This document shows positions 25,930-49,216 of a DNA stretch of 64,000 nt, one piece after another. The notes beneath the pieces were generated by a model. The model had not been told where the DNA came from, ran no database searches, and worked only from the letters and a program-made list of their open reading frames with translations. Within the stretch, counting starts at the first letter, position 1; the number at the start of each line of letters is the position of its first letter. Source of the DNA: Eubacteriales bacterium (GTDB lineage Bacteria; Bacillota; Clostridia; Oscillospirales; CAG-272); the NCBI GenBank assembly GCA_045658925.1, contig JAZOVV010000072.1, positions 17,280 through 81,279 of the forward strand. The letters are read 5' to 3'. Made by a program: the position numbers and the translations under genes.

Positions 25930-25932
25930 AAT

Positions 25933-26703
25933 ATGCATATGACGCAAATGCTCGGCGGTCTTTCGCTGGTGCTCTTCCTTGCTCTGTTTTTGATGTGCTT
26001 CTTTCGCGAAAAGCTCAAGCATCCCGTAGTCAATCCGTCGTTTATCGTTGCTTGCGCAGTGTTCTTCTTTTGTTGGAACTACGCAGCCTTTGAGCGCGGA
26101 TGGCTCGAGGATGGCTTTATGACGCTTGAAAACATCAGTCCCTTTATCTGCACAGTCATCCTCTTGACGCCTTTTATGAGCGAAAAAATAAAGAGCTTTG
26201 CGCACTGTGCCATCGCCTTTTTGGGCTTTGGTATGCTGATGGCGCTTTACATCAGCCCCGGAGCTTCCTATTTTTTGGACCACAACCACACGGCAACCTT
26301 TATGCACATCAGCGAGGCGGCTTGCCACCTGGTAATGGCTCTTTACGGATTTTATTTGATTTTGACCGAAACGGTAAAGCTGACTTGGATAAACCTCGGC
26401 AAAGCCGGCATATTTGTTTATGCATCCATCGGTTTTGGCGTGTTCCTCAACTGGTGCTTCCACCTCTCTAACTTTGGTATGGATATGTACGGTGACGCTT
26501 CGATTTACTTCTTAGATATTTTCGGCAGCTTTGAGGTCACCTTTATAGCCTATCTGTTGGGCGTGCTTGCAACACTGCTGTTAGGCTTTTTGTTTGGCAT
26601 ATTCCTGGATTGGTTCTCAAGACCGAAAGAAATCACAGAGACTGTTACCGTTATAGAGCCGGAAGAAATCGCATTCCCCACCGAAACAAAGAATAGACAG
26701 TAA
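25933..26703 (+). CDS. hypothetical polytopic membrane protein (7-8 TM)
   Basis: 256 aa, highly hydrophobic. AGGAGG RBS 8 nt upstream. Starts 4 nt after the LRR gene. Confidence 0.6.
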   Translation: MHMTQMLGGLSLVLFLALFLMCFFREKLKHPVVNPSFIVACAVFFFCWNYAAFERGWLEDGFMTLENISPFICTVILLTPFMSEKIKSFAHCAIAFLGFGMLMALYISPGASYFLDHNHTATFMHISEAACHLVMALYGFYLILTETVKLTWINLGKAGIFVYASIGFGVFLNWCFHLSNFGMDMYGDASIYFLDIFGSFEVTFIAYLLGVLATLLLGFLFGIFLDWFSRPKEITETVTVIEPEEIAFPTETKNRQ

Positions 26704-26707
26704 ACAC

Positions 26708-26747
26708 AAAACCCGTAGTTGCAAATGCAACTACGGGTTTATTTTTG
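26708..26747. terminator. bidirectional terminator
   Basis: AAAACCCGTAGTTGCA..TGCAACTACGGGTTT with T-runs on both strands. Confidence 0.7.
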
Positions 26748-26766
26748 TTTTTGAATTTCCCAATGG

Positions 26767-26794
26767 AGCGCCCGCCCGAGAGCGGGCGCTTTTT
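26767..26794 (+). terminator. second hairpin + TTTT
   Basis: AGCGCCCGC-CCGAGA-GCGGGCGCT-TTTT. Confidence 0.55.
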
Positions 26795-26825
26795 GGTTGG
26801 TTGAACCAACTTGTTTTTGGGAAGA

Positions 26826-29800
26826 TTACATCAAACCGTTCTTTACAAGGAACTGCTCGATGTAGAGGTAGATATCGTCAAAGGTCATCAGACCCTTGCC
26901 AATAGAAACCTTGAGGTAGGATGCCGGGAATGCTACGTAGAATTCGTAAGGCAGGAATTCCTCAAAGTCCTCATAGGTGAACAAGCCATATTCCTCGATG
27001 TCTGCTTGCATCTTTTCCTCGTCGTAAACAAGATCGTCACCGTACTCAAAGATGTTAAACAATCCGGTAATACCGCCGGGGATGGAGAACAAACCGTCGA
27101 CGAAGTAGTTGAGGTGGTAAACAGTTACCAAACTGTAACAACCGGTGTACTCAACTGCGAGGGTTGCATCTGTCATTGTGACACGTTCAAAGCCGTTTTC
27201 ACTTTGCATTGCGAACTCGTGACCGATAAAGTCAGTGTGGTTTTGCTCTGTAATGTAAACGTACTTATTAAGTGTCAAGTCGAAGTATGCGTGCTCGTAG
27301 ATGAGCTTGGTGGTTGTACCATCGCTGAAGGTGAGGGTAATGACGTTGTATTCTTTCCAACCGTCATTCTCAATGAAGATGATGCCTGCGGCTTCATATT
27401 CGCCCGTTTCGTGGTTGAATACGAGCAGAATGTCGTCCATAGTCAAATCTTCAACCTTCTTTTGCGTACCGTCTGCCAAGGTAATCAACGTACCTGCGGT
27501 GATACATTCCTTGTTTCGATAATGAATGTTATACGAAAGCTCTGCGGAACCTACTTCAGTCCAGCTTGTCGGCAAGGTATGATCACCGTTCGACGAGCTT
27601 ACGGTAAACTTAATGTAATGTCCGGGAATGACATAGTATGTTGCATTTGCATTATTCACTGCAGAGGGTTCAGCATACACACCACCGTCGGCGGCAGTCG
27701 AACTAACCTTAATAGCATATTTAGCAGCAACAGCGCTACTTCCGTCAGCATCCTTAGTTGCCGTAACAGAAATCTTTGTTTTGGTTCCCCAAACAATATT
27801 GATTACTGTGTCAGTCGACAAAGAGTAGTCGGTGTTTGCGTTTTCCTTACCAAACTCTGCACCGTTCAACGTCCAAGACAGGAAGTAGTGGAGTTTGTTT
27901 GCATCATCGATTACGCTATCATTTGCCGTTGCATTGGGCAACTTGATAGTCGTGCCGGACATATACCAATATGCCTTGCCATACTCAAGCGTTGCGCTAC
28001 CGTTTGTAATCAAATCGGTGTAAACGCCTTGGTCATTCGCCGTGTAGGTAATGGAAACCTTATCAATCCACTTAGCCGTCAGGGTGTATTCTCCGGAAAC
28101 AGACGTGTCAATAAAGCTGAAGTCTGTTACCTTTTGACCGTTGTAATACCAGCCCTCAAAGTACTTGTTTATTGTTACATCGGTTTGATAGCTATCGGGA
28201 ATGGTGGGCAGAGATGCCGTAGGCAACTGCGAAGGCGTGTAGATAGCAGTATCATTGTCGTAAGGAACGTCACCGAAATGGTCGTTCTCAAACTTGATTG
28301 TAAACTGTTTGCTGGTCCACAAGCCGTAGATGGTAGCATTGCCGCCAGAAATTTCAAGCAATTCAGCACCGCTGATGCTGATGATAAGCTCTGTGCATGC
28401 CGCATCCTTATACCAACCAACAAACGTACCTGTACCCGTAGGTATCGGGAGAGTGATGCTTGCGGTTTCTACGTTGAATTCAATCGCGCCCGGCAATGTG
28501 TTTGCGGGTTCGCTTCCAACTTCCCAACCCTCATATTTAAAGTTGAAGTTGAGCGTGTAAGGTTGAGGCGTCCATTGAGCGGTCAGTGTAATACCGTTTG
28601 CAAGATCTACATTGGCAGGAAGTGCACTGCCTTGGCTTACAATATTGCCGTTTGCATCCTTCCAACCCATAAAGATGTAATGTGCTCTGGTGGGAGTAGG
28701 AAGCTCGGGATATACTGTATCACTCGTGGAAATTATGAGAGAGGATACTGCATCGCCCTCGTTTGCATCAAAGTGAATGGATATAGACGTTTCCCAAACA
28801 CCGTTGACATACTCCCAAGTTTTACCCTTTACGGGAGCAATAGCGGTTTTATCAGCCTGTACAAGCTTTGCTTCCTCTGTAAACGTGTTCCACTCGTTAA
28901 CAGAAGAGAAGATGGAAAGTGCACTGATGTTGGTTATCTCATACATGGTGTAGGAAGTACCCGAATTAATGGTTACTTTTGCTCCTTCGGTATTGGAATA
29001 CACCTTGCCGCCGAAGTAATCGCAATTCAATTCGCCATTGACAGTGAGAATAGCAGCCGGCTTGTTGGGATAACGATAGTGAGCGTTGTGATATGCACAA
29101 TTATCCACAAAGGTTTCGTAAACAACAAGCGTGTTGATATCAACCATTACCCCTTCTTCAATGGTAAGGGATGCACCGTTCATCAACTTGAAGCGTTGTC
29201 CCATTTCAAAGAGCGCTACTTCATTTTCGCCTTGGAGGAGGTTGCCGTTAGCATCCCTCAAATCACTCTTGCAAAGCGTAATATTGTAGTGATACGTCAA
29301 CGGGAAGAAGCAGTCATTTGTACTTACTGTTGCAACATTCTCAATGTCAAGCTTCATCGCTTGCGTCTTGGCTCCGCCATAGATCGTCAAATCACAGATT
29401 TCGGTTGCAGGATCATACTTGGCTTGCAAATAGCTATACGACTTGTTCAAAACAATAGTTGCATCTGCCCTAATCTTATCGCTACCGATAAAGGTTACAG
29501 TGGTCGTATTGTTGTTCTCGGTCGATCCTGTAAAGAGCGACGCCCAAACGGCCAAAGCTCCACCGTAGTAGATTGTCAGCTTGGGAGATACGTTCATCAT
29601 CAAGAATCTGTTGTAAGGAGATACCCAATAAGGACTCTTCATACTGTTTTTTGCGGCTGCCATGTAACTACCGTCTCTGAAATCCTTAATTGTGTAAGGT
29701 TGGAAGAGAGTTGCTCCGGATTGAATAATAACTTCACTGCCATTATTCGCGCTTGACTCACGAATGAAGCCTGCCGCATAGATCTTACTTCCGTTCTCAG

Positions 29801-32800
29801 AAATGATCTTGGCGCCCGCATCGAGAACCAAAGTTGCATGCTTACCTGCGGTAAAGCCCGCGTATTGTGCATGTGCGCCACCGCCGGAGAGCTCACCGCC
29901 AATTTCCAAAATGCCCTTGTTGGTAATGGTCTTGCCTGCGGCAAGAATGACCTTAACGATGCACTTGTTGGGATCTTGCTCGGACGGATAGTGACCTTCG
30001 TTGTTTTCGTGTACTCTATACTTGTCGCCGCCATTGTGCGAAGTATAGCTATTGGAGTTAGTGTAGTCACAAGAACCACCGTGGAGCTCGAAGAAGGGTT
30101 GATCGCCGGTCCATTGGTTTCTACCCATCCTATCGGTTGCAACTCCGTAAGGCAGAAGCAGTTTTACACCGGATTTGATCTCTACGTTTTCTTTGATGTA
30201 GATAGGTCCGAGATCTGCATCGTGAGGCCGTACGCAAACCGTCTCGCCGGATACTGCAGCCGCAAGTGCAGCCTCGATGCTGCCGTACTCTGTGCTATCA
30301 ATCACCGCTACCGTTACAAAATTGATATTGTACTTTGTTGTAACGGTTTTGTAGTTGGCTGTATCGGTAGGTGTAAACGTGAGCTCGATATAACCGCCAC
30401 TGTTTGCAACGAACGTAGGTGCGCCCCACGTAAAGGCACCGGGAACGTTTGCATTTGCGTGCGTTGCGCCCATACCGCTATAAGAGTATGTGAACTGATT
30501 TAGATAGTACTTGTCTTTATTGCCACCGCCAAATGTAGGTGTACCGGTCAACGAGGGTGTTGCTTGGTTGATAACAAATGCAACTTCATCGGTTGTAACT
30601 GCGTCATAGTTGTCGGTCTTATCAACTACTGCTCTTACCTTGTAGTTACCTGCCTTGGTGGGAACAGTCTTGCTCCACGCGCCATCAGCGAAATACTCGA
30701 AGTAGTAAGGAACAGAAAGATTCATCTGAACAGTAGGAGTGCTTGCTGTTTCGTTGTAATTCCAGTTGCTGATTGCAAGACCGGAAAGTGTAACGGTTGC
30801 CTTTGTAATCTCATACGTGACGGTCTTATTGGCAACGTCGCTTGTATCCTCGCCCCAATAAGAGCTATCGGTGTCAAGGAGTTGGAGCTCTACCGAGTAC
30901 GTGCCAACATTTGTACCACCGTTGTTAACAACAACTGTATAAAGTCCCGCGGGAACGGTGGGCTTTTGCAATGTGGTGTTGTACGTCAGGTTACCAATGG
31001 TAGGAACTGCAACAGAGGTTGCAAGAATTTCAACAGAACGGGTTGCAGATACAATCGAGCAGTTGGGGTCGGTTGTGGTGAACTTCAACTCGTAACTGCC
31101 CTTCTTTGTGGGAAGTCCTTCGGTGTATTCACCGGTCGAACCGAGTGCTCTGTATGCAACTGTCCATCCGCCGTACTTAACCTCAACGGTAATGTAGCTG
31201 TTTACTACGTCTTCCGTCGTGCCGTACTGCCATTGAGCATTGTTTCCAATGCTTACGGAAATGGTGTTTTCTACTGCCAGGATGGAGTAGGTCGCCGTTG
31301 CCGTTGCACTTGTGTTATCAACGCTGGTCCAAGCATAGTTTGCGGGAGTGTTGAGCGTAAGCGTTACGGTGTAATCGCCCTTGTTGAGAGGATTCTCTGC
31401 TTCGGTTACGGTATAAATATCGGAAACAAGTCCCGAATACTGTACCTGACCGTTGTAATCCTTGTTTGCAATGCTCGGAACAGGAACAACAGCCTTGGCG
31501 ATTGTGAACGATTGAGCTTCACTCTCTGCCTCGTTGAGGTTATCGTTGCCTGCAAATACTGCCTTGACGTAGTAGGTGCCTGCGTTAACGGGGAGTTCGA
31601 TTTCAGCGGTGCATGCAGCATCGGTGAAATACTTGAATGTGATTTGACCGTTGCTGCTTTGTGCAAAGGTCTCGTTAAAGCTTGCAACAGGCGTCTTAGC
31701 AGATTCGCCATACGTCCAGCCATTGATAACAGGCTTGGAGATAGTAACGTCTGCCTTTTCAACCTTTACGGTAACGGTCACGGTTGCGCCCTTGTGAGTA
31801 TCGGTCTCTGCAAGAGTGATAACCACTTTGTATTCACCTGTGTTGGTAACACCCGTGAATTCGCTGCCGTCCGCCTCGTAGGTGTAACTAAGAGCGTTAC
31901 CGTTCGAAGCAGTAGCGGAAATCATATGAGCACTACCGTTATAGGTAAAGTTGTAAATTTCGTTTGCCGTGATAGACGTGTTGATCTTGGCAATGGTGAA
32001 GGTAGCTTCGGTAACAGACTCTGCCGTAACTTGATAGTTAGCGTTTTCTTCTACCGTTACTCTTACTGTGTAATTATCGGCATCGGTGGGAACAGTTGTG
32101 CTCCAAGTTAAGCCATCTGCAGAGTATTCAACAACGTAAGGAACGTCTCCGACGAATTCTTTGCTGATGGAAACAAGAGGTGCATTTGCCGCTTGACCGT
32201 AGGTCCATCCGTTGATGGTGATCGAAACTGCAACGTCTGCCTTGCCAATGCTGTAAGGAACAGTGGTAGTAGCGGCATCGGTGGTTGCCCACTTGTAGTT
32301 TGCGCTATCCGTCAAGGTCAGGGTTGCGTTGTAACTACCAAAGTTCTTTGCCACATTGCCGGAAACGGTGTACAAACCGGATTCGACAGGAATAACTGCC
32401 GTGATATCGCTACCCGTGTAGGTGTATTCCTTGGTGTATTCGGTAGGAGCGTTAACCGTCTTTTTAGCAACGGTAATGGTAATCTCTACATCACGACGGT
32501 TGTAGTTACCTGTCGCATCGGGAGTAAAGATCGCCTTGAAGCTTTGAGTGCCTGCATTGCCTACTGTGGTAGCTTCGGTTACACCTTCAATGCTCCATGT
32601 ACCTTGAATACCTGTGGGAAGCGTGATGATATCCTTGAGCAGGTCACCGTAAGTTGCGGTGTACTCAACAGTGATATCTTGGGTATTTGTTGCGGGGGTA
32701 ATGCTGTAAGTGAAGGTCTTATTTGCAGTTGTGCCGTCGTTCCAAACGTAGTGTTCGCTCGTCAAAGAGATTGTTGCGGTGAAGGAACCAACATTGGTGC

Positions 32801-35800: not shown

Positions 35801-37622
35801 TAAATACTGCCTTATAGGGCTTACTTCCGGCAGAAAGTGCGATGTCGCCGGGGGTTTGATTTTCGTCAACAACCCACGTATACTGACCCATATCGCTTGT
35901 GGGAAGTGCAATTTGACCCAAGGTGAGGTTGGGATTCCAAACTCCGGTAAGAACAACCTTATCGAATACGGTATCGGGATTGATCTTGTTAATCTTAAGC
36001 TTTTCGCTTACGTCGCTTGCTTTGTAGTTTTGGTGTTCGAATTTAAGAGTGATACTATGCTCGCCTGCGTTGATGTAGGCAGGATTTTCAAGCACGGTAA
36101 AGCTTTCGTATTGTTTGCCGTTGGCATCCTTAATAATATAAGAAAGCGTATGTTCTTGACCGTTGTAGTCGAACTCTTTTTTGCCAACGATCTCGATAAT
36201 CAGTTCTTTTTTCTCGACCTTTATTTGAACCGTACGTTCAATGACGTCATACTTGTCGAGGTCTCTGGGGGTAAATACGGCAATGTGCTCTTGGATACCT
36301 ACGTCACCAACCAAGGTGTCGGGGTATTTCCAAGACCATGTACCGTTACCGTTTTGGCTATCCTTGAAGAGCACATCTGCAAGTGTATCCTCGTAAATGG
36401 CAAAATCCTGCTCCAATACGGGGTCTGCAACGTCAAGAACGCTCGACTGAACAGTCAGTGTGCCCTCTTGAACATTGAGAATGACATTCGGGTTCGATGC
36501 CGTTGCGGTCAGCGTATACACACCGGCTCCGGCAACGATATCCTCAGGCTGAGTAACAGAGAGGCCAATCAGCTGAGCAACTGCTTCTGCACTCACATCA
36601 CCAATACCCAAGAGTTGATACTCAACCGTAGGATACGGTGTGCCCGCAACCATTTCGTAGCTGTTGATTTTAACCGTGATAGCTGCACGTTTGATTTCGT
36701 ATGTGCCAACGAGAGCACCCTCGTAATTGTCGGCATCAACTTCAAAGTAATAGTCGTATGTGCCGGCATCGGTATAGTTCGCTCCGGGAGTTTCAAAGAA
36801 AACGATTTCGAATCTTTCACCCTCTTGAGGAACTACATCTGTTTTGAAGGTAGGCTTTTGAACCGCACCGTTGTAAACAAAGCTTTCTACAACGTCAGAG
36901 AAAACAACGGTTTTCTTTGCTACGTTCACCGTAAGGGTATCGGTTGCGAGAACCGCTCCGGTTGCGTATTCAACGAAGCTGACGGGGAAAGTATGCTTGC
37001 CAACGTTACCGACGGTGCCCTCGGGTGCATCAAACTTCCATTGGCCAATAACGGTGTAAGGAAGATTGATTGCCGCGAGGTTATCTCCATAGGTTGCCTG
37101 AATCTCGGAGAGTGTCGGAATAATGGGTTCGTAAACGGCGTGGAAGGTCATGTTGTCGGCGATAACACCGGGAATTTCCGTAGACCAACCAACAAAATTG
37201 TAACCGGGTTTTTCCAGATGTACAACCTCGCCCAATTCGGCTCTGTTGAGCACGTGGACGCTTTGATATACGTCACCGTCAACCAAAAATTGGAGTTTGT
37301 ATTTTACGATGACCGGAAGGTTGAACGACTGACCGGAATAGTTGAATTTCAGTATGTGCGCACCGACCCTGGAGGTATCGACATGGGAGGTTACCATAGA
37401 AGCCTCTACGGGTACTTCTGTCGATACACCGTTTTCGGTTCTTGTGATTGTAATACGGCTCAAATCCATTGGCTCGCCGTACGTTGTAATTCCATCGAAA
37501 TTACTCACATTCAACTGATAGCTGATGCCGTCTTTATCCGTTCGCTTGCCACATGCGTTCATTGCAAACACACCTGTAACAATTAGGGTTAGGACGGTAA
37601 TCCAAACGATAATTCTTTTCAT
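26826..37622 (-). CDS. giant (3,598 aa) secreted/surface repeat protein: signal peptide, ~two dozen MBG-like YxG repeats, beta-helix-like module, InlB-B repeats, C-terminal Hint domain + acidic tail
   Basis: Uninterrupted ORF with RBS AAAGGAGAA. N-terminus is MKRIIVWITVLTLIVTGVFAMNAC. Reiterated F(V/T)YNG/YTG..P units, GW-containing repeats and CITAGTLITLADG... Hint. The antisense ORFs are nonsense. Confidence 0.9.
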   Translation of the reverse strand: MKRIIVWITVLTLIVTGVFAMNACGKRTDKDGISYQLNVSNFDGITTYGEPMDLSRITITRTENGVSTEVPVEASMVTSHVDTSRVGAHILKFNYSGQSFNLPVIVKYKLQFLVDGDVYQSVHVLNRAELGEVVHLEKPGYNFVGWSTEIPGVIADNMTFHAVYEPIIPTLSEIQATYGDNLAAINLPYTVIGQWKFDAPEGTVGNVGKHTFPVSFVEYATGAVLATDTLTVNVAKKTVVFSDVVESFVYNGAVQKPTFKTDVVPQEGERFEIVFFETPGANYTDAGTYDYYFEVDADNYEGALVGTYEIKRAAITVKINSYEMVAGTPYPTVEYQLLGIGDVSAEAVAQLIGLSVTQPEDIVAGAGVYTLTATASNPNVILNVQEGTLTVQSSVLDVADPVLEQDFAIYEDTLADVLFKDSQNGNGTWSWKYPDTLVGDVGIQEHIAVFTPRDLDKYDVIERTVQIKVEKKELIIEIVGKKEFDYNGQEHTLSYIIKDANGKQYESFTVLENPAYINAGEHSITLKFEHQNYKASDVSEKLKINKINPDTVFDKVVLTGVWNPNLTLGQIALPTSDMGQYTWVVDENQTPGDIALSAGSKPYKAVFTPYDEYKTNYNSVPGQFTLEIEQATAKIEGVKDHYDFTYNKNAFVLEGITTNHTVSELAVEYKLNGQKVDSILNAGEYVVTFTLPATTNYKEAVVTATVTVAKADAGKPTVDTAAFGDLLLNVVKFPENNEGNWTIELDATTNANENTKVGSVGEHKFVAVFTPTTENYNFAEVEITVKVAKKKIDVPQISGTNKSQVYTGALLNSGLASAEGYTVEDIGGTTVGTYKAKVVLDTTSYEWNDPNVQSTFEAEYSITPATNAWTTQPVINSWVYGQAGNNGSASAVLGDVKIEYKLASADDSTYTTVRPTNAGKYVARFTVVYANYFDLVQTCAFTIEKQTVNVPEYTKDYVYNGSPITVDIPTSNLYDIANHTNTDVRAGGYLASLTLTDSANYKWSNSESATITLAYTIGKANIVISNFSIAGWRYSQTANAPTYDVTFEDYTTVTLEYFDKDYNSIGATAPRNAGTYYVKATAAGNTNLNGYTTDFVQFTVAKASVSIDGVNDSYVESYNGAAFTLTGVKASNGATVTKVITKQGVDGTVDAIIGAGEYTITYTVAEGPNYLGATRTVEVTINKATVTISKPVIEGWTYGEAAKAPSAHFNETFAYGQINLKYFTDADCKNEITDLTNAGTYYVKAIFAGNDDLNAAASEATAFVVAQKAVTVPTVSNKPYNGQNQTSGLTAAEGYTVVDNGGTNVGPYTATVTLVSTNYIWKDGTSAVKELVYNITSIENTQEFEKTSYTATYGDLLKDIVKLPANVQGTWSIEGATEATTVGNAGTNTFKAIFEPDEVGNYNGRTVEITIVVAKKTVGKPIINPKEYTGDRLYSGLISNDLYTVVDDGGVDHGEYDVVLALVDADNYKWESTEDVSITLKFVISTAINAWVEGKLPTISSWEYESEGDHAGKATALHGDVLVEYKPADALDSAYSTELPEVPGNYVARFTTTDDNYTILTETINFSITKRVITPPKQMQSSFVYSGSLIKSDLSDGTGYAVIADEGRTNVGSFTATISLTSEHYVWNDGTTANKTFTYSITPATNTQDITVEYTATYGDLLKDIITLPTGIQGTWSIEGVTEATTVGNAGTQSFKAIFTPDATGNYNRRDVEITITVAKKTVNAPTEYTKEYTYTGSDITAVIPVESGLYTVSGNVAKNFGSYNATLTLTDSANYKWATTDAATTTVPYSIGKADVAVSITINGWTYGQAANAPLVSISKEFVGDVPYVVEYSADGLTWSTTVPTDADNYTVRVTVEENANYQVTAESVTEATFTIAKINTSITANEIYNFTYNGSAHMISATASNGNALSYTYEADGSEFTGVTNTGEYKVVITLAETDTHKGATVTVTVKVEKADVTISKPVINGWTYGESAKTPVASFNETFAQSSNGQITFKYFTDAACTAEIELPVNAGTYYVKAVFAGNDNLNEAESEAQSFTIAKAVVPVPSIANKDYNGQVQYSGLVSDIYTVTEAENPLNKGDYTVTLTLNTPANYAWTSVDNTSATATATYSILAVENTISVSIGNNAQWQYGTTEDVVNSYITVEVKYGGWTVAYRALGSTGEYTEGLPTKKGSYELKFTTTDPNCSIVSATRSVEILATSVAVPTIGNLTYNTTLQKPTVPAGLYTVVVNNGGTNVGTYSVELQLLDTDSSYWGEDTSDVANKTVTYEITKATVTLSGLAISNWNYNETASTPTVQMNLSVPYYFEYFADGAWSKTVPTKAGNYKVRAVVDKTDNYDAVTTDEVAFVINQATPSLTGTPTFGGGNKDKYYLNQFTYSYSGMGATHANANVPGAFTWGAPTFVANSGGYIELTFTPTDTANYKTVTTKYNINFVTVAVIDSTEYGSIEAALAAAVSGETVCVRPHDADLGPIYIKENVEIKSGVKLLLPYGVATDRMGRNQWTGDQPFFELHGGSCDYTNSNSYTSHNGGDKYRVHENNEGHYPSEQDPNKCIVKVILAAGKTITNKGILEIGGELSGGGAHAQYAGFTAGKHATLVLDAGAKIISENGSKIYAAGFIRESSANNGSEVIIQSGATLFQPYTIKDFRDGSYMAAAKNSMKSPYWVSPYNRFLMMNVSPKLTIYYGGALAVWASLFTGSTENNNTTTVTFIGSDKIRADATIVLNKSYSYLQAKYDPATEICDLTIYGGAKTQAMKLDIENVATVSTNDCFFPLTYHYNITLCKSDLRDANGNLLQGENEVALFEMGQRFKLMNGASLTIEEGVMVDINTLVVYETFVDNCAYHNAHYRYPNKPAAILTVNGELNCDYFGGKVYSNTEGAKVTINSGTSYTMYEITNISALSIFSSVNEWNTFTEEAKLVQADKTAIAPVKGKTWEYVNGVWETSISIHFDANEGDAVSSLIISTSDTVYPELPTPTRAHYIFMGWKDANGNIVSQGSALPANVDLANGITLTAQWTPQPYTLNFNFKYEGWEVGSEPANTLPGAIEFNVETASITLPIPTGTGTFVGWYKDAACTELIISISGAELLEISGGNATIYGLWTSKQFTIKFENDHFGDVPYDNDTAIYTPSQLPTASLPTIPDSYQTDVTINKYFEGWYYNGQKVTDFSFIDTSVSGEYTLTAKWIDKVSITYTANDQGVYTDLITNGSATLEYGKAYWYMSGTTIKLPNATANDSVIDDANKLHYFLSWTLNGAEFGKENANTDYSLSTDTVINIVWGTKTKISVTATKDADGSSAVAAKYAIKVSSTAADGGVYAEPSAVNNANATYYVIPGHYIKFTVSSSNGDHTLPTSWTEVGSAELSYNIHYRNKECITAGTLITLADGTQKKVEDLTMDDILLVFNHETGEYEAAGIIFIENDGWKEYNVITLTFSDGTTTKLIYEHAYFDLTLNKYVYITEQNHTDFIGHEFAMQSENGFERVTMTDATLAVEYTGCYSLVTVYHLNYFVDGLFSIPGGITGLFNIFEYGDDLVYDEEKMQADIEEYGLFTYEDFEEFLPYEFYVAFPASYLKVSIGKGLMTFDDIYLYIEQFLVKNGLM

Positions 37623-37740
37623 AATTTTCTCCTTTGAAAATCAAAGTCTATGAAGGATTATAAACGCGTGGACTCGTTTGTATTCCTTGGGCTAACAGTC
37701 ATAAAATTGACTAACTGTGGTTAAGTGTTTGGGGAATGCG

Positions 37741-40700
37741 TTATTTTTTTCTTGCAACAAAATCGTAAGCCTTTTCGCTTGCCAAAATCTTTTCCTGTTC
37801 TGCGGGATTAAACGTAGATTTGTTGTTGAAAATGAAGAAGTGGAAGTTTTCGTCACCTGCGGCAGCACTCAATTCGGAACGTCCTACTACACCCAGCGAG
37901 ACGTCGTACTGTGCAAGCTGATTAACAATGCTGCTATCGGAATCGAAAACGCAATAGTTTTTGCCGCCGCCAAAGAATGCGATACCTGCATGAACGTAGT
38001 CCTTGCCACCGTTGTGCTGGGTAACGATGTCTGCATAGTCATAACCAACGGCGCTTTTGGCTGCATTAATCATTTCTTGTATGTTGAGTTCCATTTCAAA
38101 GGGAGTACCGCCGGCATTGACAACTACGCCATTGACCTCAATCAAAGTAGAACTGTTAACGTCATCAACTGCCTTCCAGTTGTAAAGCCCAACCTCACCC
38201 TCAAAACGAAGCTTTGCACCGTACGAGGTTTTTGCAAGGTCGTACCAAGTACCGTGAATGTTGGATAAGGCAGGCATTGCTTTTGCTCCGTCATGAAGCA
38301 TACCGCCCGCAAAGTGCGAATCCATACCAATGGCAAAAATACCGGAGTCTTGGAATACGGAATCTCTTACTGTAATAAAGGTGTTAATAAATGCTTCATC
38401 GTATGCTTGCTTTTGTTCATCTGTAAAGTTATAGTACGTCTTTTTTGCGTTGTAAGCATTAGAAGCCTTGAAGGGGAGCTTGGAGGTATCGTACTGATAA
38501 TCCTCTGGGAAGGAAATGCTGTGGGGTACAAACACCTCATTTCCCTTTTCATCAGTAACATAATATCCACCATCGATAAACTGGTTCGAACCAACTCTCA
38601 TAATGAACTCTCTTGCCTGTGCAAGAATGGAGTTGGTAACGGTTACGTGAATATCCTTGGCATCGTCGTCAATGTCACCGAATGCGCGAAGCACGGTTCT
38701 GCCGTTTGTCAATCTGGAATATGCAATGGTAACGTTATCGCCAAATACCTCAACCGTGGTACCGATGTAATTCAATTCCACAAGGTTCAAGCTACCGGAG
38801 CCATCGTCGCCCAGGTCGCATCCGCGAAGCTCAACGTTGGTAACCGTAACACCCTCATAAAGAGCAAAGCAGATGTTATCCTGTGCCTTTACGCTGATGG
38901 TTGCTCCGTTATCCATAATCAATCGAACAAAGTCGAGAGGACCTTGGAAAAGCGCATTGGGATCTTGGTCCTTAGCACCATCACCGTTCTTGTCTTCGCC
39001 AAGCTTATAGGTGATGTTATCCGCACTGATTTTTTTGTTGTTGCCGTAAAGGTCGTTTCTGAATTCCAAAAGGATTTTTACCGTCGCCTCGTCCTCAATA
39101 CCTGCATTCTTGTAATAGGTATCGTCGTAGGTGGTGTGAATCGTTGTATATTTTTCAACATATTCCCCACCGATGTAACCGAAGTCATCCGTTACGTTGG
39201 TTTGCAGAACGATGGGATGATCGGTCGCCTTGGTTGCGTAGTAAAGGTCTGCATAGCTGTAAACGTTGATACCGTTCTCTACACAGCGAACTGTGAAACG
39301 GTTGCTTTCCATTTCAACGCCCGCATAAGAGAAGGAAACGTAGAACTCAACCTCGCCCAAGAAGTTTTCACCGTCATCAACAAAAGAAATGACGCCGGTC
39401 TTTTCGTCAATCATTACCTTATCGGGCATAGACGACTTCCACTTGAGGTTTGCTACACATTCTGCACTGATTTCATCGCTGAGAAGCTGATAGTTCAGAG
39501 CAAATACATTGTTGCCGGATGCTGCGCTAACAAGTGTGCGTACAAGCTCACCGTTTGCATCTCGCTTGAGTTTACCGGTTGTTTCATCAATAGCATATTC
39601 AAACTTATAGCCACCAACGGTGAGGAGGTCCTCAAGGCCGTAGGTTTCGGAAGCCTCAACAACGTCGATTTTTGTAGGCTTTACAACAACTGTTGTCGAA
39701 ATAGTGATAACCTGACTGGGGTCTTGCTCGCTTTGAATGGTCAACGTAACCGTTGCATATCCTGCCTTGCTTGCCTCTACAAGAACGTTTTTACCAACCG
39801 TTCTAACAGAGATATAATCGTTGGAGGCTGTTACCTCTTTGCAAATAATCTTTGCGTCCTCGGGAATGAGGGTGTAAGGAAGTTGAACCTTCTGTCCTAC
39901 GTTGATTGCAAAGGTTTCGCTGTTAAAGGCGGCCTCGATTTTGTCTACCTTGGAAACCTCGCAGGACTTGGTAAACGTATCACTGCCGGATTGGAAAGTA
40001 ATGTCAATTCTTACGCGTCCAACGTAAGCCTTGTCAACAAATCGATAGCTAAGAACAACGTCTTCGCCATCAATGCTGAATTCCGCCGCAATAACAGAAT
40101 TGGGGATGGGATTGCCGCTTACAGCATCAAAAACTTGATACGAAAGGTTTGCGGCGGTAAATGCTTCGGTAGACTCAATGGAAATCGGGATGTATCCCAC
40201 ATCTTGGAAGGTCGTAATTTGAGCCATGCCAAGGTCCATCGTGTCGGTGTTCTTTACAACGATATCGATGCTATCGGTGATAGTTGCATCGTCATCGGAA
40301 ACAACCGTGATGGTTGCCGCGCCCTTGCGAAGAGCACGAACCTCACCTGTATCCGAAACGGTTGCTACCGAGGGATTGGTGGATGTATAGTAAAGAACCT
40401 TGTTAGATGCATTCTCGGGGCTAAAGGTTGTGGTAACTTGTGCTTTTTCGCCTACCACCAACTCGTTTTTATCGATGGTTGCATCAATGGATTGCAGTTT
40501 TGTGGAAATAACGTGAATAACAACACTCGCCGGGAAGCCACGCTCAATGGTTGTAAGCGTAAGCTTTGCAGAGCCTGCGGCCAAGGGAGTAATAACAACC
40601 TTGCCCTCTTCCTCCATATTGAAGTCGAACTCTGCTACGGGTGCTTCACCGTATGCCTCAACGCCGACGTAAACGCCCTTGTTTTTAGCACCGGTGGGAT

Positions 40701-40890
40701 AAACGGTGTACTCAAGCGTGTATGATGTATCACCCTTGTCCATATACAAATAAATGATCTTGTCGCCGGTAATCTCAATGCCTTCTACACGAACATCAAC
40801 CAAATTGGCAACCGTTTGTGATGCGGCAAAGAGGAGTATCATAACGACGATCGGAATAATCAGCAAAAGTAATATCAGTTTTTTTGCCAT
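37741..40890 (-). CDS. signal-anchored 1,049-aa protein: Big_2-like Ig repeats + C-terminal beta-helix-like half
   Basis: RBS AAGGAGGA. N-terminal TM is LILLLLIIPIVVMILLFAA. Big_2-type segments (…ATVSDTGEVRALRKGAATITVVS…). The C-terminal half is rich in short beta-repeat patterns. Confidence 0.8.
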   Translation of the reverse strand: MAKKLILLLLIIPIVVMILLFAASQTVANLVDVRVEGIEITGDKIIYLYMDKGDTSYTLEYTVYPTGAKNKGVYVGVEAYGEAPVAEFDFNMEEEGKVVITPLAAGSAKLTLTTIERGFPASVVIHVISTKLQSIDATIDKNELVVGEKAQVTTTFSPENASNKVLYYTSTNPSVATVSDTGEVRALRKGAATITVVSDDDATITDSIDIVVKNTDTMDLGMAQITTFQDVGYIPISIESTEAFTAANLSYQVFDAVSGNPIPNSVIAAEFSIDGEDVVLSYRFVDKAYVGRVRIDITFQSGSDTFTKSCEVSKVDKIEAAFNSETFAINVGQKVQLPYTLIPEDAKIICKEVTASNDYISVRTVGKNVLVEASKAGYATVTLTIQSEQDPSQVITISTTVVVKPTKIDVVEASETYGLEDLLTVGGYKFEYAIDETTGKLKRDANGELVRTLVSAASGNNVFALNYQLLSDEISAECVANLKWKSSMPDKVMIDEKTGVISFVDDGENFLGEVEFYVSFSYAGVEMESNRFTVRCVENGINVYSYADLYYATKATDHPIVLQTNVTDDFGYIGGEYVEKYTTIHTTYDDTYYKNAGIEDEATVKILLEFRNDLYGNNKKISADNITYKLGEDKNGDGAKDQDPNALFQGPLDFVRLIMDNGATISVKAQDNICFALYEGVTVTNVELRGCDLGDDGSGSLNLVELNYIGTTVEVFGDNVTIAYSRLTNGRTVLRAFGDIDDDAKDIHVTVTNSILAQAREFIMRVGSNQFIDGGYYVTDEKGNEVFVPHSISFPEDYQYDTSKLPFKASNAYNAKKTYYNFTDEQKQAYDEAFINTFITVRDSVFQDSGIFAIGMDSHFAGGMLHDGAKAMPALSNIHGTWYDLAKTSYGAKLRFEGEVGLYNWKAVDDVNSSTLIEVNGVVVNAGGTPFEMELNIQEMINAAKSAVGYDYADIVTQHNGGKDYVHAGIAFFGGGKNYCVFDSDSSIVNQLAQYDVSLGVVGRSELSAAAGDENFHFFIFNNKSTFNPAEQEKILASEKAYDFVARKK

Positions 40891-40941
40891 TTAAGGATCC
40901 TCCTTAGCATTTGGTGCGTACCTATTATGCGGTCGCACAAA

Positions 40942-42615
40942 TTATTTAGTAAGTTTAGAAAATGCTTTTTCGATGTTGACGTGGTAGAAAACGATACTCG
41001 AAAGGAAGTAAACCAAAGCGATCGCTCCGGGAATGAGATAAGCGTAGGTCTCTTTGATGACGAGTCCGCCAATGAATTCGGGGTTGATTCCTGCAAATAC
41101 CGAAATGAAGAAGCAAAGGAAGCCGATGATAACGGCAAGGAACAAACCAATGGAAACCACCTTTGCAATGGTTCTGTCGCTGGTTCTTGCAACCTCTTCG
41201 GGAGAAGCATCGACAACCGCACAGTTGAGGTCGGTTCTCGTCGCAATCAGAATTTGCGAGAAGGAGAATACCAAGCTGATGGCGGCAACGATGAGAGCGT
41301 CAAACATTTCGATTTGAATCTCGGGGTGGAAGTACAGCAACAGTACGCTGCCGATAACCGAGAGCGAGCTGATAATGCTGCAGAAAAGCACCTTGGAGAA
41401 CAAGAGCTTGGATGCCTTTATCGGGAAGGACTTTGCCTTCAGGGCAGATTTGCCGTCTCTTGTAATATTCGTTGCACAGAAGGTGTTCGTCAAAATGGTG
41501 AACACAAGAACAACGATGAGTGCCAGTGCAAACTCAAATCCGCGTCCGAGCGCGTTGAATACCAACGTTTCAAACAACGTATAGGAGCAATAAATCATAA
41601 ACGGCATTGCAAATGCAATGGTAAAGTAAGAGAAAAGATATTTGGGCTCACGGTAAACCGTAACAAACTCTTTTCTAAGCAGGCTGGCAGTAACCTTGCG
41701 TTGGAAACCAAAGCTGCGCTTTTTGCGGCTCTTTCTGCCATCGCGGTTTCTGTAAAGAACCAGACGGTAGAGCGCACCGGTAATCAGGAACGTGAACAAC
41801 AGTGCTGCTGCGGCAACCGAAACGGAAATGATAAGCGACATTTGCATATCAACACCCATTTGAACGGATGCCAAAGAATTTGCGGGATAGGTGTATTCCT
41901 TTGCAGTAACCAGGATGTCTACAAACTCGTTGTTGAACAGGAATTTGATAGAGCCGGTTTCAAACAGTGCACGCAAAACGTCGAGAATCTTGGAGTAAAC
42001 GAAGAACGCGCCTACAACCAAGCCGGACAGTGCAACAAAGGAAAGGAAGTATCTTGTGCTCAAGAATTTGATAACTACCATATAGGGCAGAATCAAAACG
42101 GTTGCCATCAAGAAGGAAACCATAGGAAGCAACAGATAAACCAGAACCGTGCGAATCAGGAAATCATCTCCAACCCCCAAAACGAAGTAGAAGATGAGAT
42201 TGACGGGAATGATGAGCAAAAATGCCGTAACGTACGTCCAAAGCAAAAGAGCTGTGAACTTTGCACGGAAGATGGTGCCGTTTTTCACGGGCAGACGCAA
42301 AAAGATCGGAATATCCGAGTTTCTTGTCAGCGTGCTGCGCATCTTTTCAAGACACATAATGCCGAGCGCCACAATCAAAATGGTGTAAACGGCATTGATG
42401 AGCTCATATGCTCTCGCCATAGGGTCGATTACTTGGTTCACTTTAACTTCTAAGTAGCCGTCGGCAATGGAGTAAACCAGCAAGCCAAAAATGCCGGCGA
42501 TTGCAAGCGTAAAGAGAAGGGATGTAAATGCGCCGAGAAGGTCGAACCGCTTGCCGCGCGAACCCGGAAAGAGCATTCGGCGCTCATATTTGAATAGTGT
42601 TCGGAAGTTTCTCAT
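40942..42615 (-). CDS. ABC-transporter permease-like polytopic membrane protein (two hydrophobic halves)
   Basis: 557 aa. ATGA overlap with the upstream ATPase gene. About 12 hydrophobic segments split by a basic loop (RNRDGRKSRKKRSFGFQRK). Confidence 0.7.
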   Translation of the reverse strand: MRNFRTLFKYERRMLFPGSRGKRFDLLGAFTSLLFTLAIAGIFGLLVYSIADGYLEVKVNQVIDPMARAYELINAVYTILIVALGIMCLEKMRSTLTRNSDIPIFLRLPVKNGTIFRAKFTALLLWTYVTAFLLIIPVNLIFYFVLGVGDDFLIRTVLVYLLLPMVSFLMATVLILPYMVVIKFLSTRYFLSFVALSGLVVGAFFVYSKILDVLRALFETGSIKFLFNNEFVDILVTAKEYTYPANSLASVQMGVDMQMSLIISVSVAAAALLFTFLITGALYRLVLYRNRDGRKSRKKRSFGFQRKVTASLLRKEFVTVYREPKYLFSYFTIAFAMPFMIYCSYTLFETLVFNALGRGFEFALALIVVLVFTILTNTFCATNITRDGKSALKAKSFPIKASKLLFSKVLFCSIISSLSVIGSVLLLYFHPEIQIEMFDALIVAAISLVFSFSQILIATRTDLNCAVVDASPEEVARTSDRTIAKVVSIGLFLAVIIGFLCFFISVFAGINPEFIGGLVIKETYAYLIPGAIALVYFLSSIVFYHVNIEKAFSKLTK

Positions 42616-43343
42616 ACCTTTGCCACCCTTTGCGTAATCAACAAGAAGTAATTTTCAAGACTGCAACCGGTTCTCTTGAAGGCCGCCATATCGATTTCCT
42701 GCAGAATCTTTCCTTGGTCAATGATGTAAACTCTGTCACAAACCTTTTCAACAGTGTCAAGGTTGTGAGAGGAGAACAAAACAAGGTTTCCGTTTCTGCT
42801 ATGCTCATAGAAGAAGCGCTTGACCTGGTTTGCGGTGTGGGGGTCGAGACCTACCATAGGCTCGTCAAGGATGAACACCTTGGGGTTGTGAATGAGAGCG
42901 CCCATAAACGAAACCTTTTGCTTCATACCGTGAGAGTAGGAAGAAATCGGCTTGTAGATGGAGTCACCCAAAGCAAGCATCTCTTGGAACTTTTGAATTC
43001 TCGCCTTTCTGTCAGACGACTTCACCTGATAAATGTCTGCCATAAAGTTGACGAACTCATAGCCTGTCATTTTCTCAAAAAGCGTGTACTCATCGCTGAC
43101 GTAGCCGAAATTCTGCTTCGCCTCGATGGACTCGGTCATCAAATCGTGACCCGCAATGGTGATAGTTCCGTGCTCATAAGGGTGCATACCGGTAATGCAC
43201 TTAATGGTGGTGGATTTACCTGCACCGTTGTGACCGAGCACGCCAACGATTTCACCGGGGTTACCAACAATGTTGATATCCTCGATTGCGTAGTTGGCTC
43301 TCTTGTGGTACTTCTTGTAAAGGTTGCTAACTTCAAGTAACAT
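42612..43343 (-). CDS. ABC transporter ATP-binding protein (ABC-2/DrrA-like)
   Basis: Trimmed to the ATG at 43343 (GGGAGGAAAAAT RBS). Walker A GHNGAGKST, signature YSHGMKQK, Walker B FILDEP. Confidence 0.9.
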   Translation of the reverse strand: MLLEVSNLYKKYHKRANYAIEDINIVGNPGEIVGVLGHNGAGKSTTIKCITGMHPYEHGTITIAGHDLMTESIEAKQNFGYVSDEYTLFEKMTGYEFVNFMADIYQVKSSDRKARIQKFQEMLALGDSIYKPISSYSHGMKQKVSFMGALIHNPKVFILDEPMVGLDPHTANQVKRFFYEHSRNGNLVLFSSHNLDTVEKVCDRVYIIDQGKILQEIDMAAFKRTGCSLENYFLLITQRVAKV

Positions 43344-43421
43344 ATTTTTCCTCCCGGAGGGCGTTTCCCTTGCGGCCCATACCGTCTTCGGGGTTGCCCT
43401 TCTTTTTAATTTCGTGCTTTT

Positions 43422-43492
43422 AAAAAAAAAATACACCGCTCCCAACCCATCTATCGCTATAATAGGATATGAAAGATGATTGTGGACGGTGT
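43422..43492 (-). promoter_or_regulatory. leader hairpin followed by T10 (attenuator-like) in the 5' UTR of the ABC/giant-protein locus
   Basis: Long imperfect stem closed by ACACCG/CGGTGT (43433-38 / 43487-92). T10 on the minus strand corresponds to A10 at 43422-43431. Confidence 0.5.
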
Positions 43493-43503
43493 TTTGTGAA
43501 CTC

Positions 43504-43532
43504 ATTATAACACATAACGAGATGCTTGTCAA
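43504..43532 (-). promoter_or_regulatory. consensus sigma-A promoter of the ABC/giant-protein locus
   Basis: Minus strand TTGACA (43527-32), 17 nt spacer, TATAAT (43504-09). Confidence 0.75.
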
Positions 43533-44434: not shown

Positions 44435-44463
44435 CGTATGCTAAAAAACAGCTCAAAAAGCAA

Positions 44464-44506
44464 ACAACCGCACACACGGATTTCGTGTGTGCGGTTGTCT
44501 TTTTTT
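44464..44506. terminator. bidirectional terminator (15-bp stem + T7)
   Basis: ACAACCGCACACACG..CGTGTGTGCGGTTGT-CTTTTTTT. Confidence 0.75.
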
Positions 44507-46618: not shown

Positions 46619-46640
46619 CGTTTCTTTTAATCCTATCAAA

Positions 46641-49064: not shown

Positions 49065-49126
49065 ATTGGCACCTCCAAATTCATACTGTTTTGTGTCGAA
49101 ACAACAAAGTCTGCGTATATTATATC

Positions 49127-49155
49127 ATTTTATCTTGCAGAATGCAAGATAAAAT
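49127..49155. promoter_or_regulatory. perfect 13-3-13 inverted repeat overlapping the -35/spacer of the GH3-glf-GT2 promoter (candidate operator)
   Basis: ATTTTATCTTGCA-GAA-TGCAAGATAAAAT. A minus-strand TATAAT lies just downstream (49119-49124). Confidence 0.6.
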
Positions 49156-49178
49156 TTTTGAACACTGCCCTGCACAGG

Positions 49179-49211
49179 CAAAGCCCACCCCGTAAAACGA
49201 GGTGGGCTTTG
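49179..49211. other. 11-bp hairpin after the 700-aa gene (possible terminator)
   Basis: CAAAGCCCACC..GGTGGGCTTTG. Confidence 0.4.
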
Positions 49212-49216
49212 GTTGT

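Follow-up and report, generated by a model that had tools for sequence, protein, structure and literature searches.

Why should an ATP-binding cassette (ABC) transporter be encoded together with two very large surface proteins, and what would it do for them? We addressed this question for a four-gene cassette in a 64,000-nucleotide (nt) stretch of Eubacteriales bacterium (GCA_045658925.1, contig JAZOVV010000072.1, positions 17,280 to 81,279), hereafter the window. In this cassette an ABC ATPase and a permease are followed by a 1049-amino-acid (aa) protein of immunoglobulin-like (Ig) domains and a predicted beta-helix, and then by a 3598-aa repeat protein, the giant. Comparison with related loci points to a dedicated cell-envelope module tied to an ABC machine in gut Clostridia, with Christensenellaceae-like and 'Eubacteriales' metagenome-assembled genomes (MAGs) as its carriers. 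A surface module coupled to an ABC machine had been the central proposal of an initial annotation of this DNA, and it is the persistence of the gene order in changed surroundings that bears it out. As a general model we tentatively propose that the ABC pair supplies a substrate or work to an anchored partner, that the fibre is displayed and that a Hint domain processes its tip; for any specific chemistry behind this model our confidence is much lower.

Gene order is conserved in changing surroundings

The list of open reading frames (ORFs) and their translations gives four minus-strand genes in the cassette:

42612-43343, minus strand: ABC ATPase, 243 aa from ATG, matching PF00005
40942-42615, minus strand: permease, 557 aa, start overlapping the ATPase stop by 4 nt, assigned from hydropathy
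37741-40890, minus strand: Ig/beta-helix protein, 1049 aa
26826-37622, minus strand: giant fibre protein, 3598 aa

The coordinates confirm the arrangement described initially, with four genes on one strand, 4 nt shared by ATPase and permease, and gaps of 51 and 118 nt between the others. The ATPase ORF formally starts at a TTG (43556); the ATG at 43343 is preceded by GGGAGGA and yields a protein of 243 aa, the length found in all relatives.

Related loci (n = 34) were collected by scanning a genome collection with a permease profile, and their permease identities run from 84% down to 26%. Their taxonomic labels are Clostridia, Eubacteriales, Oscillospiraceae, Christensenellaceae and, once, Bacilli. 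Linkage was counted by BLAST of all locus ORFs against the window proteins, together with inspection of outliers. The ATPase lies immediately upstream of the permease in 33 of the 34 loci, the exception being cut by a contig end, and a homologue of the 1049-aa protein lies immediately downstream of the permease in all 34. A giant is the next gene in 28 loci. Two others (L031 and L036) have a ~900-aa protein with a lipoprotein-type N-terminus in its place, two (L013 and L019) are on contigs that end before the fourth gene, and two (L032 and L035) have no large fourth gene. Two permease homologues found by direct look-up, at 56% and 79% identity, have the same four genes in other surroundings. 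The flanks vary among the loci, from MgtE (L001) and a tRNA synthetase/DcuC pair (L002) to glycolysis genes and to the GT2 glycosyltransferase, UDP-galactopyranose mutase (Glf) and GtrA genes of L004-L009; glycan genes are absent beside L001, L010-L012 and beyond.

The order also extends to remote permease relatives (profile E 1e-26 to 1e-38), in which the core adjacency is kept in four of the five contexts sampled, the fifth contig being too short. At L040 the ATPase and permease are followed by a 916-aa and then a 928-aa Big_2 protein, at L041 by a protein of at least 1752 aa, and at L043 by a 2073-aa Big_2 protein and a giant of at least 1734 aa composed of MBG_2/YDG repeats. At L037 the gene after the permease encodes a homologue of the N-terminal half of the 1049-aa protein (E 1e-13). 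Judged by this synteny, the linkage of the cassette genes is real and old, and it spans dozens of species. Since L032 and L035 have no large fourth gene and L031 and L036 only a ~900-aa protein, the invariant core consists of the ABC pair and the anchored Ig/beta-helix protein, with the giant as a frequent, dispensable and very variable component. The initial annotation had named linkage of the ABC pair with the large proteins in relatives as the test of its own reading; such linkage was found throughout for the Ig/beta-helix partner (34/34) and in part for the fourth gene, a giant or a ~900-aa protein being present in 30 of the 34 loci.

Could the co-location nonetheless be meaningless, the ABC pair being an ordinary efflux or resistance pump that is inherited beside surface genes? 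DrrA-like ATPases are typical of drug and lantibiotic pumps, and many of the Clostridia and Bacilli MAGs are related, so that some of the synteny could be inertia. However, the linkage holds down to 26% permease identity and in the remote members despite reshuffled flanks, ATPase and permease are coupled in translation, and in every locus the third gene follows at a short distance. We consider mere coincidence very unlikely.

Families of the ATPase and the permease

The ATPase matches PF00005 with 104.7 bits (cut-off 25). Its best NCBIfam models are GldA (188 bits, cut-off 402.6) and DrrA (187 bits, cut-off 312.45), and no named equivalog (GldA, DrrA, NodI and others) was reached, all scores lying below the NCBIfam cut-offs. 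The nearest PDB chains are the nucleotide-binding domains (NBDs) of the lipid exporters ABCA1, ABCA4, ABCA3 and ABCA7, at 192 bits compared to 130 for the next group. We observed a Walker A motif (GHNGAGKST), a Walker B motif with its catalytic Glu (VFILDE), an H-loop (SSH) and the signature YSHGMKQK at residues 136-143, which is identical in 33 of 34 related ATPases and reads YSHGMRQK in the remaining one. A His stands here in place of the first Gly of LSGGQ, a hallmark of the family. By its motifs and profile scores the protein is an ABCA/DrrA-like ABC NBD; the PF00005 match and the DrrA and GldA scores agree with the DrrA-like ATPase that had been annotated.

The GldA score raises the possibility of a surface-motility or adhesion motor like GldA/GldF/GldG with SprB in Bacteroidetes. 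GldA is the best NCBIfam match of the ATPase, and lipoproteins and a giant repeat adhesin are present as well. Yet its score is far under the cut-off and equal to that of DrrA, and for this reason a kinship specific to GldA was rejected. No further gld or spr homologues were seen, and the envelope is of the Gram-positive kind, without a type IX secretion system. We give a Gld-like motor hardly any credence.

Hydropathy analysis of the permease showed ~12 hydrophobic segments in two halves with a Lys/Arg-rich loop between them, which confirms the two hydrophobic halves first reported for this 557-aa protein. An exhaustive profile search yielded a family of 1191 cluster representatives, nearly all of them 530-570 aa long. 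Its remote members match PF16949 (ABC_tran_2; up to 42 bits) and PF09847 (12TM_1), and they touch the ABC-2 membrane families weakly, with PF12730 and PF01061 scoring under their cut-offs. The permease profile returned nothing useful from the PDB sequences, and a literature search on PF16949, PF09847, 12TM_1 and ABC_tran_2 found no functional study of the family. These profile matches suggest that the permease is a fused protein of 12 transmembrane (TM) segments belonging to the uncharacterised PF16949/PF09847 family.

The anchored partner of the ABC pair

The third gene product, which accompanies the ABC pair in every related locus, is divided as follows:

40819-40887, minus strand: N-terminal TM helix of the 1049-aa protein, residues 2-24, from the AF2 model and alignment
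39271-40803, minus strand: stalk of the 1049-aa protein, residues 30-540, ~five Ig-like domains
37741-39270, minus strand: C-terminal head of the 1049-aa protein, residues 541-1049, predicted right-handed beta-helix (AF2, Foldseek)

Residues K3, K4, L5, I6, L8, L10, P13, M17, L20 and F21 of the TM helix are invariant, that is, 10 of the first 21 residues, among homologues that are otherwise 38-92% identical. Such invariance would be unusual in a helix that served as signal-anchor and nothing more. The same MKK...P... helix opens the third-gene products of the remote loci L037, L040, L041 and L043. The AF2 model of the full protein has an overall predicted local distance difference test (pLDDT) score of 83.5, reaching ~85-95 in the stalk, and two stalk domains match Big_2 (Pfam, 70.6 bits). 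The protein had been annotated as signal-anchored with Big_2-like repeats, and this description stands, with a TM helix, Big_2 matches and Ig-like domains up to about residue 540.

Foldseek of the full model returned Ig arrays and the S-layer proteins SbsB, Sap and SbsC, the Ig array dominating the search. Because this result was uninformative on the head, the head was re-predicted alone (pLDDT 80.7, predicted template modelling score (pTM) 0.87). The best-ranked Foldseek matches were all beta-helices of the pectate-lyase fold, and beta-helices made up nearly all of the top ~50 PDB and viral matches; the neighbours include capsule depolymerase tailspikes, pectate and alginate lyases, the AlgG epimerase and the adhesin PfbA. 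The beta-helix-like half proposed in the initial annotation is supported only at the level of fold class, since the model of the head is confident but its Foldseek E-values and TM-scores are weak. A sequence search of the protein against the PDB gave nothing useful beyond the Big_2 domains. By BLAST, the head is better conserved than the stalk and the N-terminal half as a whole, and the alignment places many invariant charged or polar residues in it; no catalytic motif was identified. This conservation, together with the invariant polar residues, suggests a ligand-binding or catalytic role for the head. A glycan-handling role is plausible because of the fold neighbours and because GT2, Glf and GtrA genes lie beside the cassette in the window's clade.

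The same observations could fit a system for ABC-2-dependent export and modification of an exopolysaccharide or wall glycopolymer, in which the head would be a lyase or epimerase and the giant a glycan-binding accessory. This account overlaps the branch of our model in which the ABC pair hands a substrate to its partner; it differs in that polymer export is primary and the giant a minor accessory. The pectate and alginate lyases, AlgG epimerase and capsule depolymerases among the structural neighbours, the invariant polar residues of the head, and the GtrA, GT2 and UDP-galactopyranose mutase genes beside the cassette in the window's clade all speak for it, as does the reported occurrence of beta-helix depolymerases in ABC-dependent capsule loci (PMC6003464). 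However, genes for a glycosyltransferase, a polymerase or a priming enzyme are lacking from the conserved cassette, the glycan genes are missing beside L001, L010-L012 and beyond, and the structural matches are weak and come without an identified catalytic motif. We regard polymer export as a rather unlikely primary function.

The 1049-aa homologue is encoded by a single gene in 21 of the 34 loci and is split in the other 13. In the split loci (L016-L023 and L025-L029) there is a ~410-aa TM-anchored Ig part and a 780-960-aa head-carrying lipoprotein, the N-terminal domain of which resembles the N-terminus of the giant. In L011 the full-length homologue is present twice, in tandem. Positions 1-3650 of L033, a Bacilli MAG contig, carry a second, paralogous ABC pair and then a 134-aa protein that consists of a TM helix and one Ig-like domain; this protein may be a minimal form of the partner of the ABC pair.

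The giant fibre protein and its route of export

The fourth gene product begins with a signal peptide and continues with several kinds of repeat:

37551-37622, minus strand: signal peptide of the giant with a lipobox-like MNAC (Cys24), from alignment with homologues
30330-36935, minus strand: repeat region of the giant, residues 230-2431, from an iterated hidden Markov model (HMM) built on the protein itself
28818-30332, minus strand: conserved ~500-aa module of the giant, residues 2431-2935, from homologue alignment
27843-28778, minus strand: Flg_new (Listeria-Bacteroides, InlB B-type) repeats, PF09479 at 41.4 bits (cut-off 27) in three stretches

The lipobox context, FAMNAC, is atypical when compared to the pattern [LVI][ASTVI][GAS]C. 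An equivalent of Cys24 is found in 22 of 31 giant homologues, many of them with a canonical LSSC, LAAC, LVAC or FASC, which supports the signal peptide with possible lipobox noted initially; in the other nine homologues the anchor looks uncleaved. The iterated HMM found 23 significant MBG-like repeats of 66-88 aa each and a second, interspersed repeat type, so that the 'about two dozen' MBG-like repeats first counted become 23. Their Pfam matches are weak, with MBG_3 reaching 28.5 bits (cut-off 25) on one segment and MBG 17.6 bits, and most of the 23 are too divergent for the Pfam cut-offs. The ~500-aa module, initially called beta-helix-like, is conserved in 20 homologues. It gave no Pfam or PDB profile match, to a beta-helix family or any other, and neither BLASTP nor hhalign detected a relation to the head of the 1049-aa protein. 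The Flg_new region contains four (G/S)W repeats and agrees in number and type with the four GW-containing InlB-B-type repeats of the initial annotation. General Pfam scans of the giant and the 1049-aa protein reported no SLH or other wall-anchor family, and the C-terminal 1198 aa of the giant gave nothing useful when compared to PDB sequences. A motif scan found no LPXTG-like motif in either protein; with this motif lacking and with a Hint module at the end of the giant, a sortase-anchored (LPXTG) adhesin was rejected.

Is the ABC pair, then, the dedicated export or anchoring machine of the giant, as a Gram-positive counterpart of type I adhesin secretion? The pair and the giants are tightly and anciently linked, and the genes are operon-like with small gaps. 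On the other hand, the giant begins with a signal peptide of the lipoprotein type and the 1049-aa protein with a signal-anchor, the transporter is of the ABC-2/ABCA kind with NBD and transmembrane domain (TMD) on separate proteins, neither a C39 nor a membrane-fusion protein component nor a C-terminal secretion signal is evident, and the pair persists without a giant in L032 and L035. Membership of a type I secretion system was rejected on account of the separate NBD and TMD and of the N-terminal signals on both large proteins, and a dedicated machine for the giant seems to us unlikely. More generally, the Sec-type signals on both large proteins and the ABCA/DrrA character of the transporter make secretion of these proteins through the ABC pair unlikely. 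Export by the pair had been one of the functions first considered, and it is the part of that proposal which we would now set aside.

A Hint-like module at the end of the giant

The giant ends in a module of 226 aa, counted from Cys3373, with two parts:

27063-27506, minus strand: Hint-like autoprocessing domain starting at the invariant Cys3373, from alignment, PF01079 matches in relatives and a PDB profile match
26829-27062, minus strand: acidic tail after the Hint domain, ~78 aa with an approximate boundary, from alignment of 12 ends

In 12 aligned giant ends the first Cys is invariant and the sequence before it is variable. An alignment of nine Hint sequences has C6, H77, T11-L12 and A16-D17-G18-T19-Q20 (TL..ADGTQ) invariant. 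From our own comparison of motifs, we take H77 to be the block-B His and YSLVTVYHLNYFVDG to resemble intein blocks F and G; this family has not kept the Thr of the TxxH motif. The window sequence scores E 0.024 and 14.7 bits against the Hint model, under the cut-off of 29.7. In the family, PF01079 is matched by 6/9 members (best E 1.7e-5), Hom_end_hint by 4/9 and Intein_splicing by 3/9, and Hint_2, Vint and PT-HINT are matched by fewer members than PF01079. A profile of the module aligns over residues 6-145 (140 residues) with the ~150-aa chain 6y75/6tmm from end to end and also matches a PDB entry named 'intein C-terminal splicing domain-containing protein' (E 0.003-0.006 for the PDB matches). 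The Hint end that had been read from the sequence of the giant is upheld by the alignment from Cys3373 and by the PF01079 matches of its relatives.

The Hint domain ends with ...VDGLFSIPGG, after which come the tail and the stop codon, and neither a His-Asn pair, a downstream nucleophile nor a C-extein was found in the sequence and alignment. Because His-Asn and C-extein are lacking, only N-terminal cleavage or transfer would be possible, as in Hedgehog; a splicing intein was rejected on the same grounds.

The module evolves differently from the rest of the protein. In the giant P0241 the last 226 residues (1858-2083) are 91% identical to those of the window giant, compared to 38% elsewhere, which suggests cassette recombination or very strong purifying selection. 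For L021 and L027 the module is 61-63% identical, compared to ~30% (28-33%) in the N-terminal and conserved-module regions. The giants P0249 and P0252-P0254 have no match to the Flg_new/Hint region beyond the 500-aa module. Taken together, these comparisons suggest that the Hint end is optional among homologous giants, real but divergent, and far more conserved than the fibre body. The acidic tail, with the motif YD.E.M.ADIE.YGL(Y/F)TYE(D/E)F...YLKV..GKG, is homologous in all 12 aligned giant ends, and Pfam gave no known-family or toxin-family match for it.

Sec-dependent polymorphic toxins have been described with the architecture of a filamentous repeat protein in which a Hint domain directly precedes the C-terminal domain (PMC3482391). 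The giant has the same order of repeats, Hint and tail, and its module looks like a recombining cassette, given the 91% versus 38% identity. Under such a scheme of contact-dependent competition, the Hint domain would free the ~80-aa tail as an effector and the ABC pair would serve immunity or export. However, the tail is one homologous, acidic and conserved domain in 12/12 ends, with no polymorphic set and no toxin-family match, and there is no immunity-type gene, since terminators and convergent genes follow directly after the stop. With its conserved tail and without an immunity gene, the locus was rejected as a polymorphic toxin in the main, and we hold this explanation to be highly improbable.

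Transcription signals and leader RNA

We next describe the signals that precede the genes of the cassette:

43504-43532, minus strand: sigma-70-type promoter TTGACA-17-TGtTATAAT, the sole 12/12 match in the region
43433-43492, minus strand: leader hairpin, followed by U10 at 43422-43431, from folding (~-20 kcal/mol)
43349-43400, minus strand: structured RNA element GGGCAACCCCGAAGACGG...GCCGCAAGGGAAACGCCCUCC, just 5' of the ribosome-binding site (RBS), from alignment with relatives
37657-37680, minus strand: conserved block CAAACGAGTCCACGCGTTTATAAT in the gap before the giant gene, 24 nt, ending in TATAAT

Promoter-like sites across the region number 26, compared to 27.4 expected, i.e. there is no excess. 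In the upstream alignment, AAAACCATTGACA...TGnTATAAT is kept in L002-L009 and CTTGACA...TGnTATAAT in L010-L012. This conservation among relatives makes the promoter credible and is stronger evidence than the consensus match. The consensus promoter placed upstream of the ATPase by the initial annotation is, on these grounds, retained as a unique 12/12 match kept in 10 related loci, and the leader of ~160 nt assigned to it measures ~154 nt.

A further claim, that no hairpin with a T-run precedes 26708-26794, did not hold, as the leader itself contains the hairpin at 43433-43492 with U10 behind it. This feature resembles an intrinsic terminator or attenuator; the terminator scan tool passed over it because of the length of its loop. 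The arms of the hairpin covary in relatives. Because the long U-run is limited to the window, L006 and L007, attenuation may be restricted to this lineage, and the conserved feature of the leader may be a 5' stem-loop. The 52-nt element at 43349-43400 is nearly invariant in eight loci (L002-L009), with compensatory changes in L008 and L009, and folds into nested stems. Its 3' strand CCCUCC is complementary to the RBS GGGAGG, so that pairing is possible. We consider it a candidate cis-regulatory RNA restricted to this clade. An Rfam scan of the locus gave no family for the leader elements. A leader RNA common to all loci was rejected, as the motifs are confined to the window's clade (L002-L009); more distant loci carry long leaders of their own.

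The block CAAACGAGTCCACGCGTTTATAAT occurs once in the window and occupies the corresponding position when the gaps of seven related loci are aligned. Its 22-nt pattern is exact in five of them, the remainder of the gap being divergent:

L002 14780-14801, L003 5825-5846, L004 15164-15185, L005 13076-13097 and L007 14222-14243: block of the same type in relatives

The block has a perfect -10 sequence and a weak -35 (AATACA or GAAACA, at 16 nt) and lies 34 nt from the ATG of the giant gene, which makes it a candidate internal promoter or other regulatory site. With this conserved TATAAT block at 37657-37680, the single promoter initially assumed for the whole locus is not established. Transcription of the cassette would start at the conserved sigma-70-type promoter and pass through the structured leader, probably with an additional start at an internal promoter before the fibre gene. 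In the 51-nt gap between the permease and 1049-aa genes (40891-40941, minus strand), an inverted motif of the TGCAC...TGCAC type is kept in relatives, with no U-run behind it.

Boundaries and neighbouring genes

The locus is bounded by the following features:

26709-26740, both strands: bidirectional intrinsic terminator closing the locus downstream
44462-44500: bidirectional terminator, upstream boundary
43853-44434, plus strand: GtrA-like gene, divergent, upstream boundary

The terminator at 26709-26740 agrees with the terminators reported initially after the giant gene (26708-26794), and proved to be bidirectional. Two plus-strand genes at 25048-26703 converge on the locus and encode a BspA-type LRR_5 protein and a 256-aa protein without a family match; L001 likewise has an LRR_5 gene close to the cassette. 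On the other side, the neighbourhood at 43853-54553 contains genes for the GtrA-like protein, a GT2 glycosyltransferase, UDP-galactopyranose mutase (Glf), two GH3 glycosidases, one of them with a permuted domain order, and a 700-aa Big_3 protein. Only in the closest relatives, L004-L009, do GtrA, GT2 and Glf adjoin the cassette. Long plus-strand ORFs lie antisense to the giant and 1049-aa genes (32193-37586, 1797 aa; 26811-29756, 981 aa; 38293-40725, 810 aa). Because such shadow ORFs oppose most genes of the window, they are probably artefacts of codon usage and not genes.

A tentative model of the module

In the model that we tentatively prefer, the ABC pair would be the membrane base of the module and would contact its partner through the conserved TM helix of the latter. 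The pair may pass an envelope substrate that is embedded in the membrane or linked to lipid on to the carbohydrate-enzyme-like head; most likely, this substrate would be a glycolipid or wall-glycan precursor. Alternatively, it might drive the head by ATP hydrolysis and so deliver mechanical work. The fibre would be the displayed and variable component, lipid- or TM-anchored at its N-terminus and fast-evolving, and the Hint domain would cut it at Cys3373 after export, so that the C-terminal module is either removed or a reactive (thio)ester is formed at the tip.

Several observations weigh against this model. A stalk of ~five Ig domains would place the head tens of nanometres off the membrane, which argues against docking like that of NosD; it is because of this length that we assign the permease contact to the TM helix and not to the head. 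The conserved cassette contains no glycosyltransferase or glycan-synthesis gene, GT2, Glf and GtrA being found only near close relatives. The window permease has no Pfam or NCBIfam match, and matches to Pfam families occur only among its remote relatives, and weakly. For the head, the best Foldseek E-value is 4e-3 and TM-scores are 0.09-0.28, a Pfam scan of 16 homologues assigned it to no family, including NosD (PF05048) and Beta_helix, and the 50 top PDB structural matches listed for it do not include NosD. In addition, the 34 loci are MAGs only, from ruminant and human gut.

A more far-reaching proposal would make the locus a Gram-positive surface-appendage system of a kind not recognised so far, with the ABC pair as ATP-driven base in contact with the TM helix of its partner, the Ig/beta-helix partner assembling, modifying or actuating the fibre, and the Hint (thio)ester ligating the tip to a glycan, a lipid, or a host or partner surface. 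We think this improbable.

Comparison with known systems

Each component is of a known kind (ABC-2-type transporter, Ig/beta-helix protein, MBG/Flg_new repeats, Hint), and the combination appears to be new. Literature searches on the permease families and on giants combined with ABC or Hint turned up no account of this gene combination, of a permease subfamily with an obligatory TM-anchored partner or of a Hint-plus-tail at the end of an N-terminally anchored fibre.

The gene-level arrangement matches NosF/NosY-NosD-NosL, which we suggest as the nearest formal analogue. NosD is a beta-helix protein. The two systems share four kinds of part: a DrrA-like ATPase, an ABC-2-type membrane protein separate from it, a lipoprotein, and an extracytoplasmic protein, kept at the membrane through the transporter in NosDFY and, by our model, here. 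The NosDFY transporter works for this extracytoplasmic protein and for the lipoprotein NosL, and neither secretes a protein nor exports a solute to the medium (PMC8457098). The differences are considerable: the permease of the cassette is fused into one 12-TM chain and comes from a different family, its anchored partner brings a TM helix of its own and stands on a long Ig stalk, a giant fibre takes the place of the 18-kDa chaperone as lipoprotein, and the locus has no link to copper or N2O reductase. Membership of the NosD family was rejected, as no sequence, Pfam or listed structural relation of the head to NosD was found. If the ABC pair does act through its anchored partner, the principle of NosDFY would be extended to Gram-positive surface biology.

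Among ABC-2 exporters of glycopolymers and lipids (Wzm/Wzt, TarGH, ABCA1/ABCA4), the likeness lies in an ATPase that is nearest to ABCA NBDs and DrrA models, in a permease of 6+6 TM segments with remote relatives that touch ABC-2 families, and in the wall-glycan genes near the close relatives. In contrast to those systems, the permease is not a recognisable member of their families, the conserved unit has no glycan-synthesis genes, and they have no counterpart to the obligatory Ig/beta-helix partner. With the cassette, a permease family of ~1,200 representatives without a described function gains consistent genomic partners and becomes a testable envelope system in abundant uncultured Clostridia of gut and rumen.

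Type I secretion of LapA, SiiE or MpIBP likewise links an ABC transporter genetically to a giant Ig-repeat adhesin. There, a fused TMD-NBD exporter works with a membrane-fusion protein and TolC on a C-terminal signal; in the cassette, NBD and TMD are different proteins of the ABC-2 kind, and the signal of the giant is N-terminal and of the lipoprotein type. With the MBG/Flg_new surface proteins of Firmicutes the giant shares repeat types at or near the Pfam thresholds, and it differs from them in its very divergent repeats, its N-terminal lipobox anchoring and its Hint end. The giants are likely to be major surface antigens or adhesins of Christensenellaceae-like bacteria.

Inteins, Hedgehog and bacterial intein-like (BIL) domains are related (PMC4031507). 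In common with Hedgehog and BIL Hint domains, the module described here has an invariant first Cys, a conserved block-B His and matches to Hint-family models in most members; like Hedgehog, it carries a C-terminal extension, and no C-extein, after the Hint domain. It differs in that the window module scores under the Pfam gathering threshold, the Thr of TxxH is not kept, the conserved tail of ~80 aa is new, and its place at the tip of an N-terminally anchored fibre is unusual. The Hint-plus-tail, far more conserved than the fibre, is a candidate for covalent chemistry at the tip. If the tip is indeed ligated, a Hedgehog-like transfer would be used for bacterial adhesion or anchoring.

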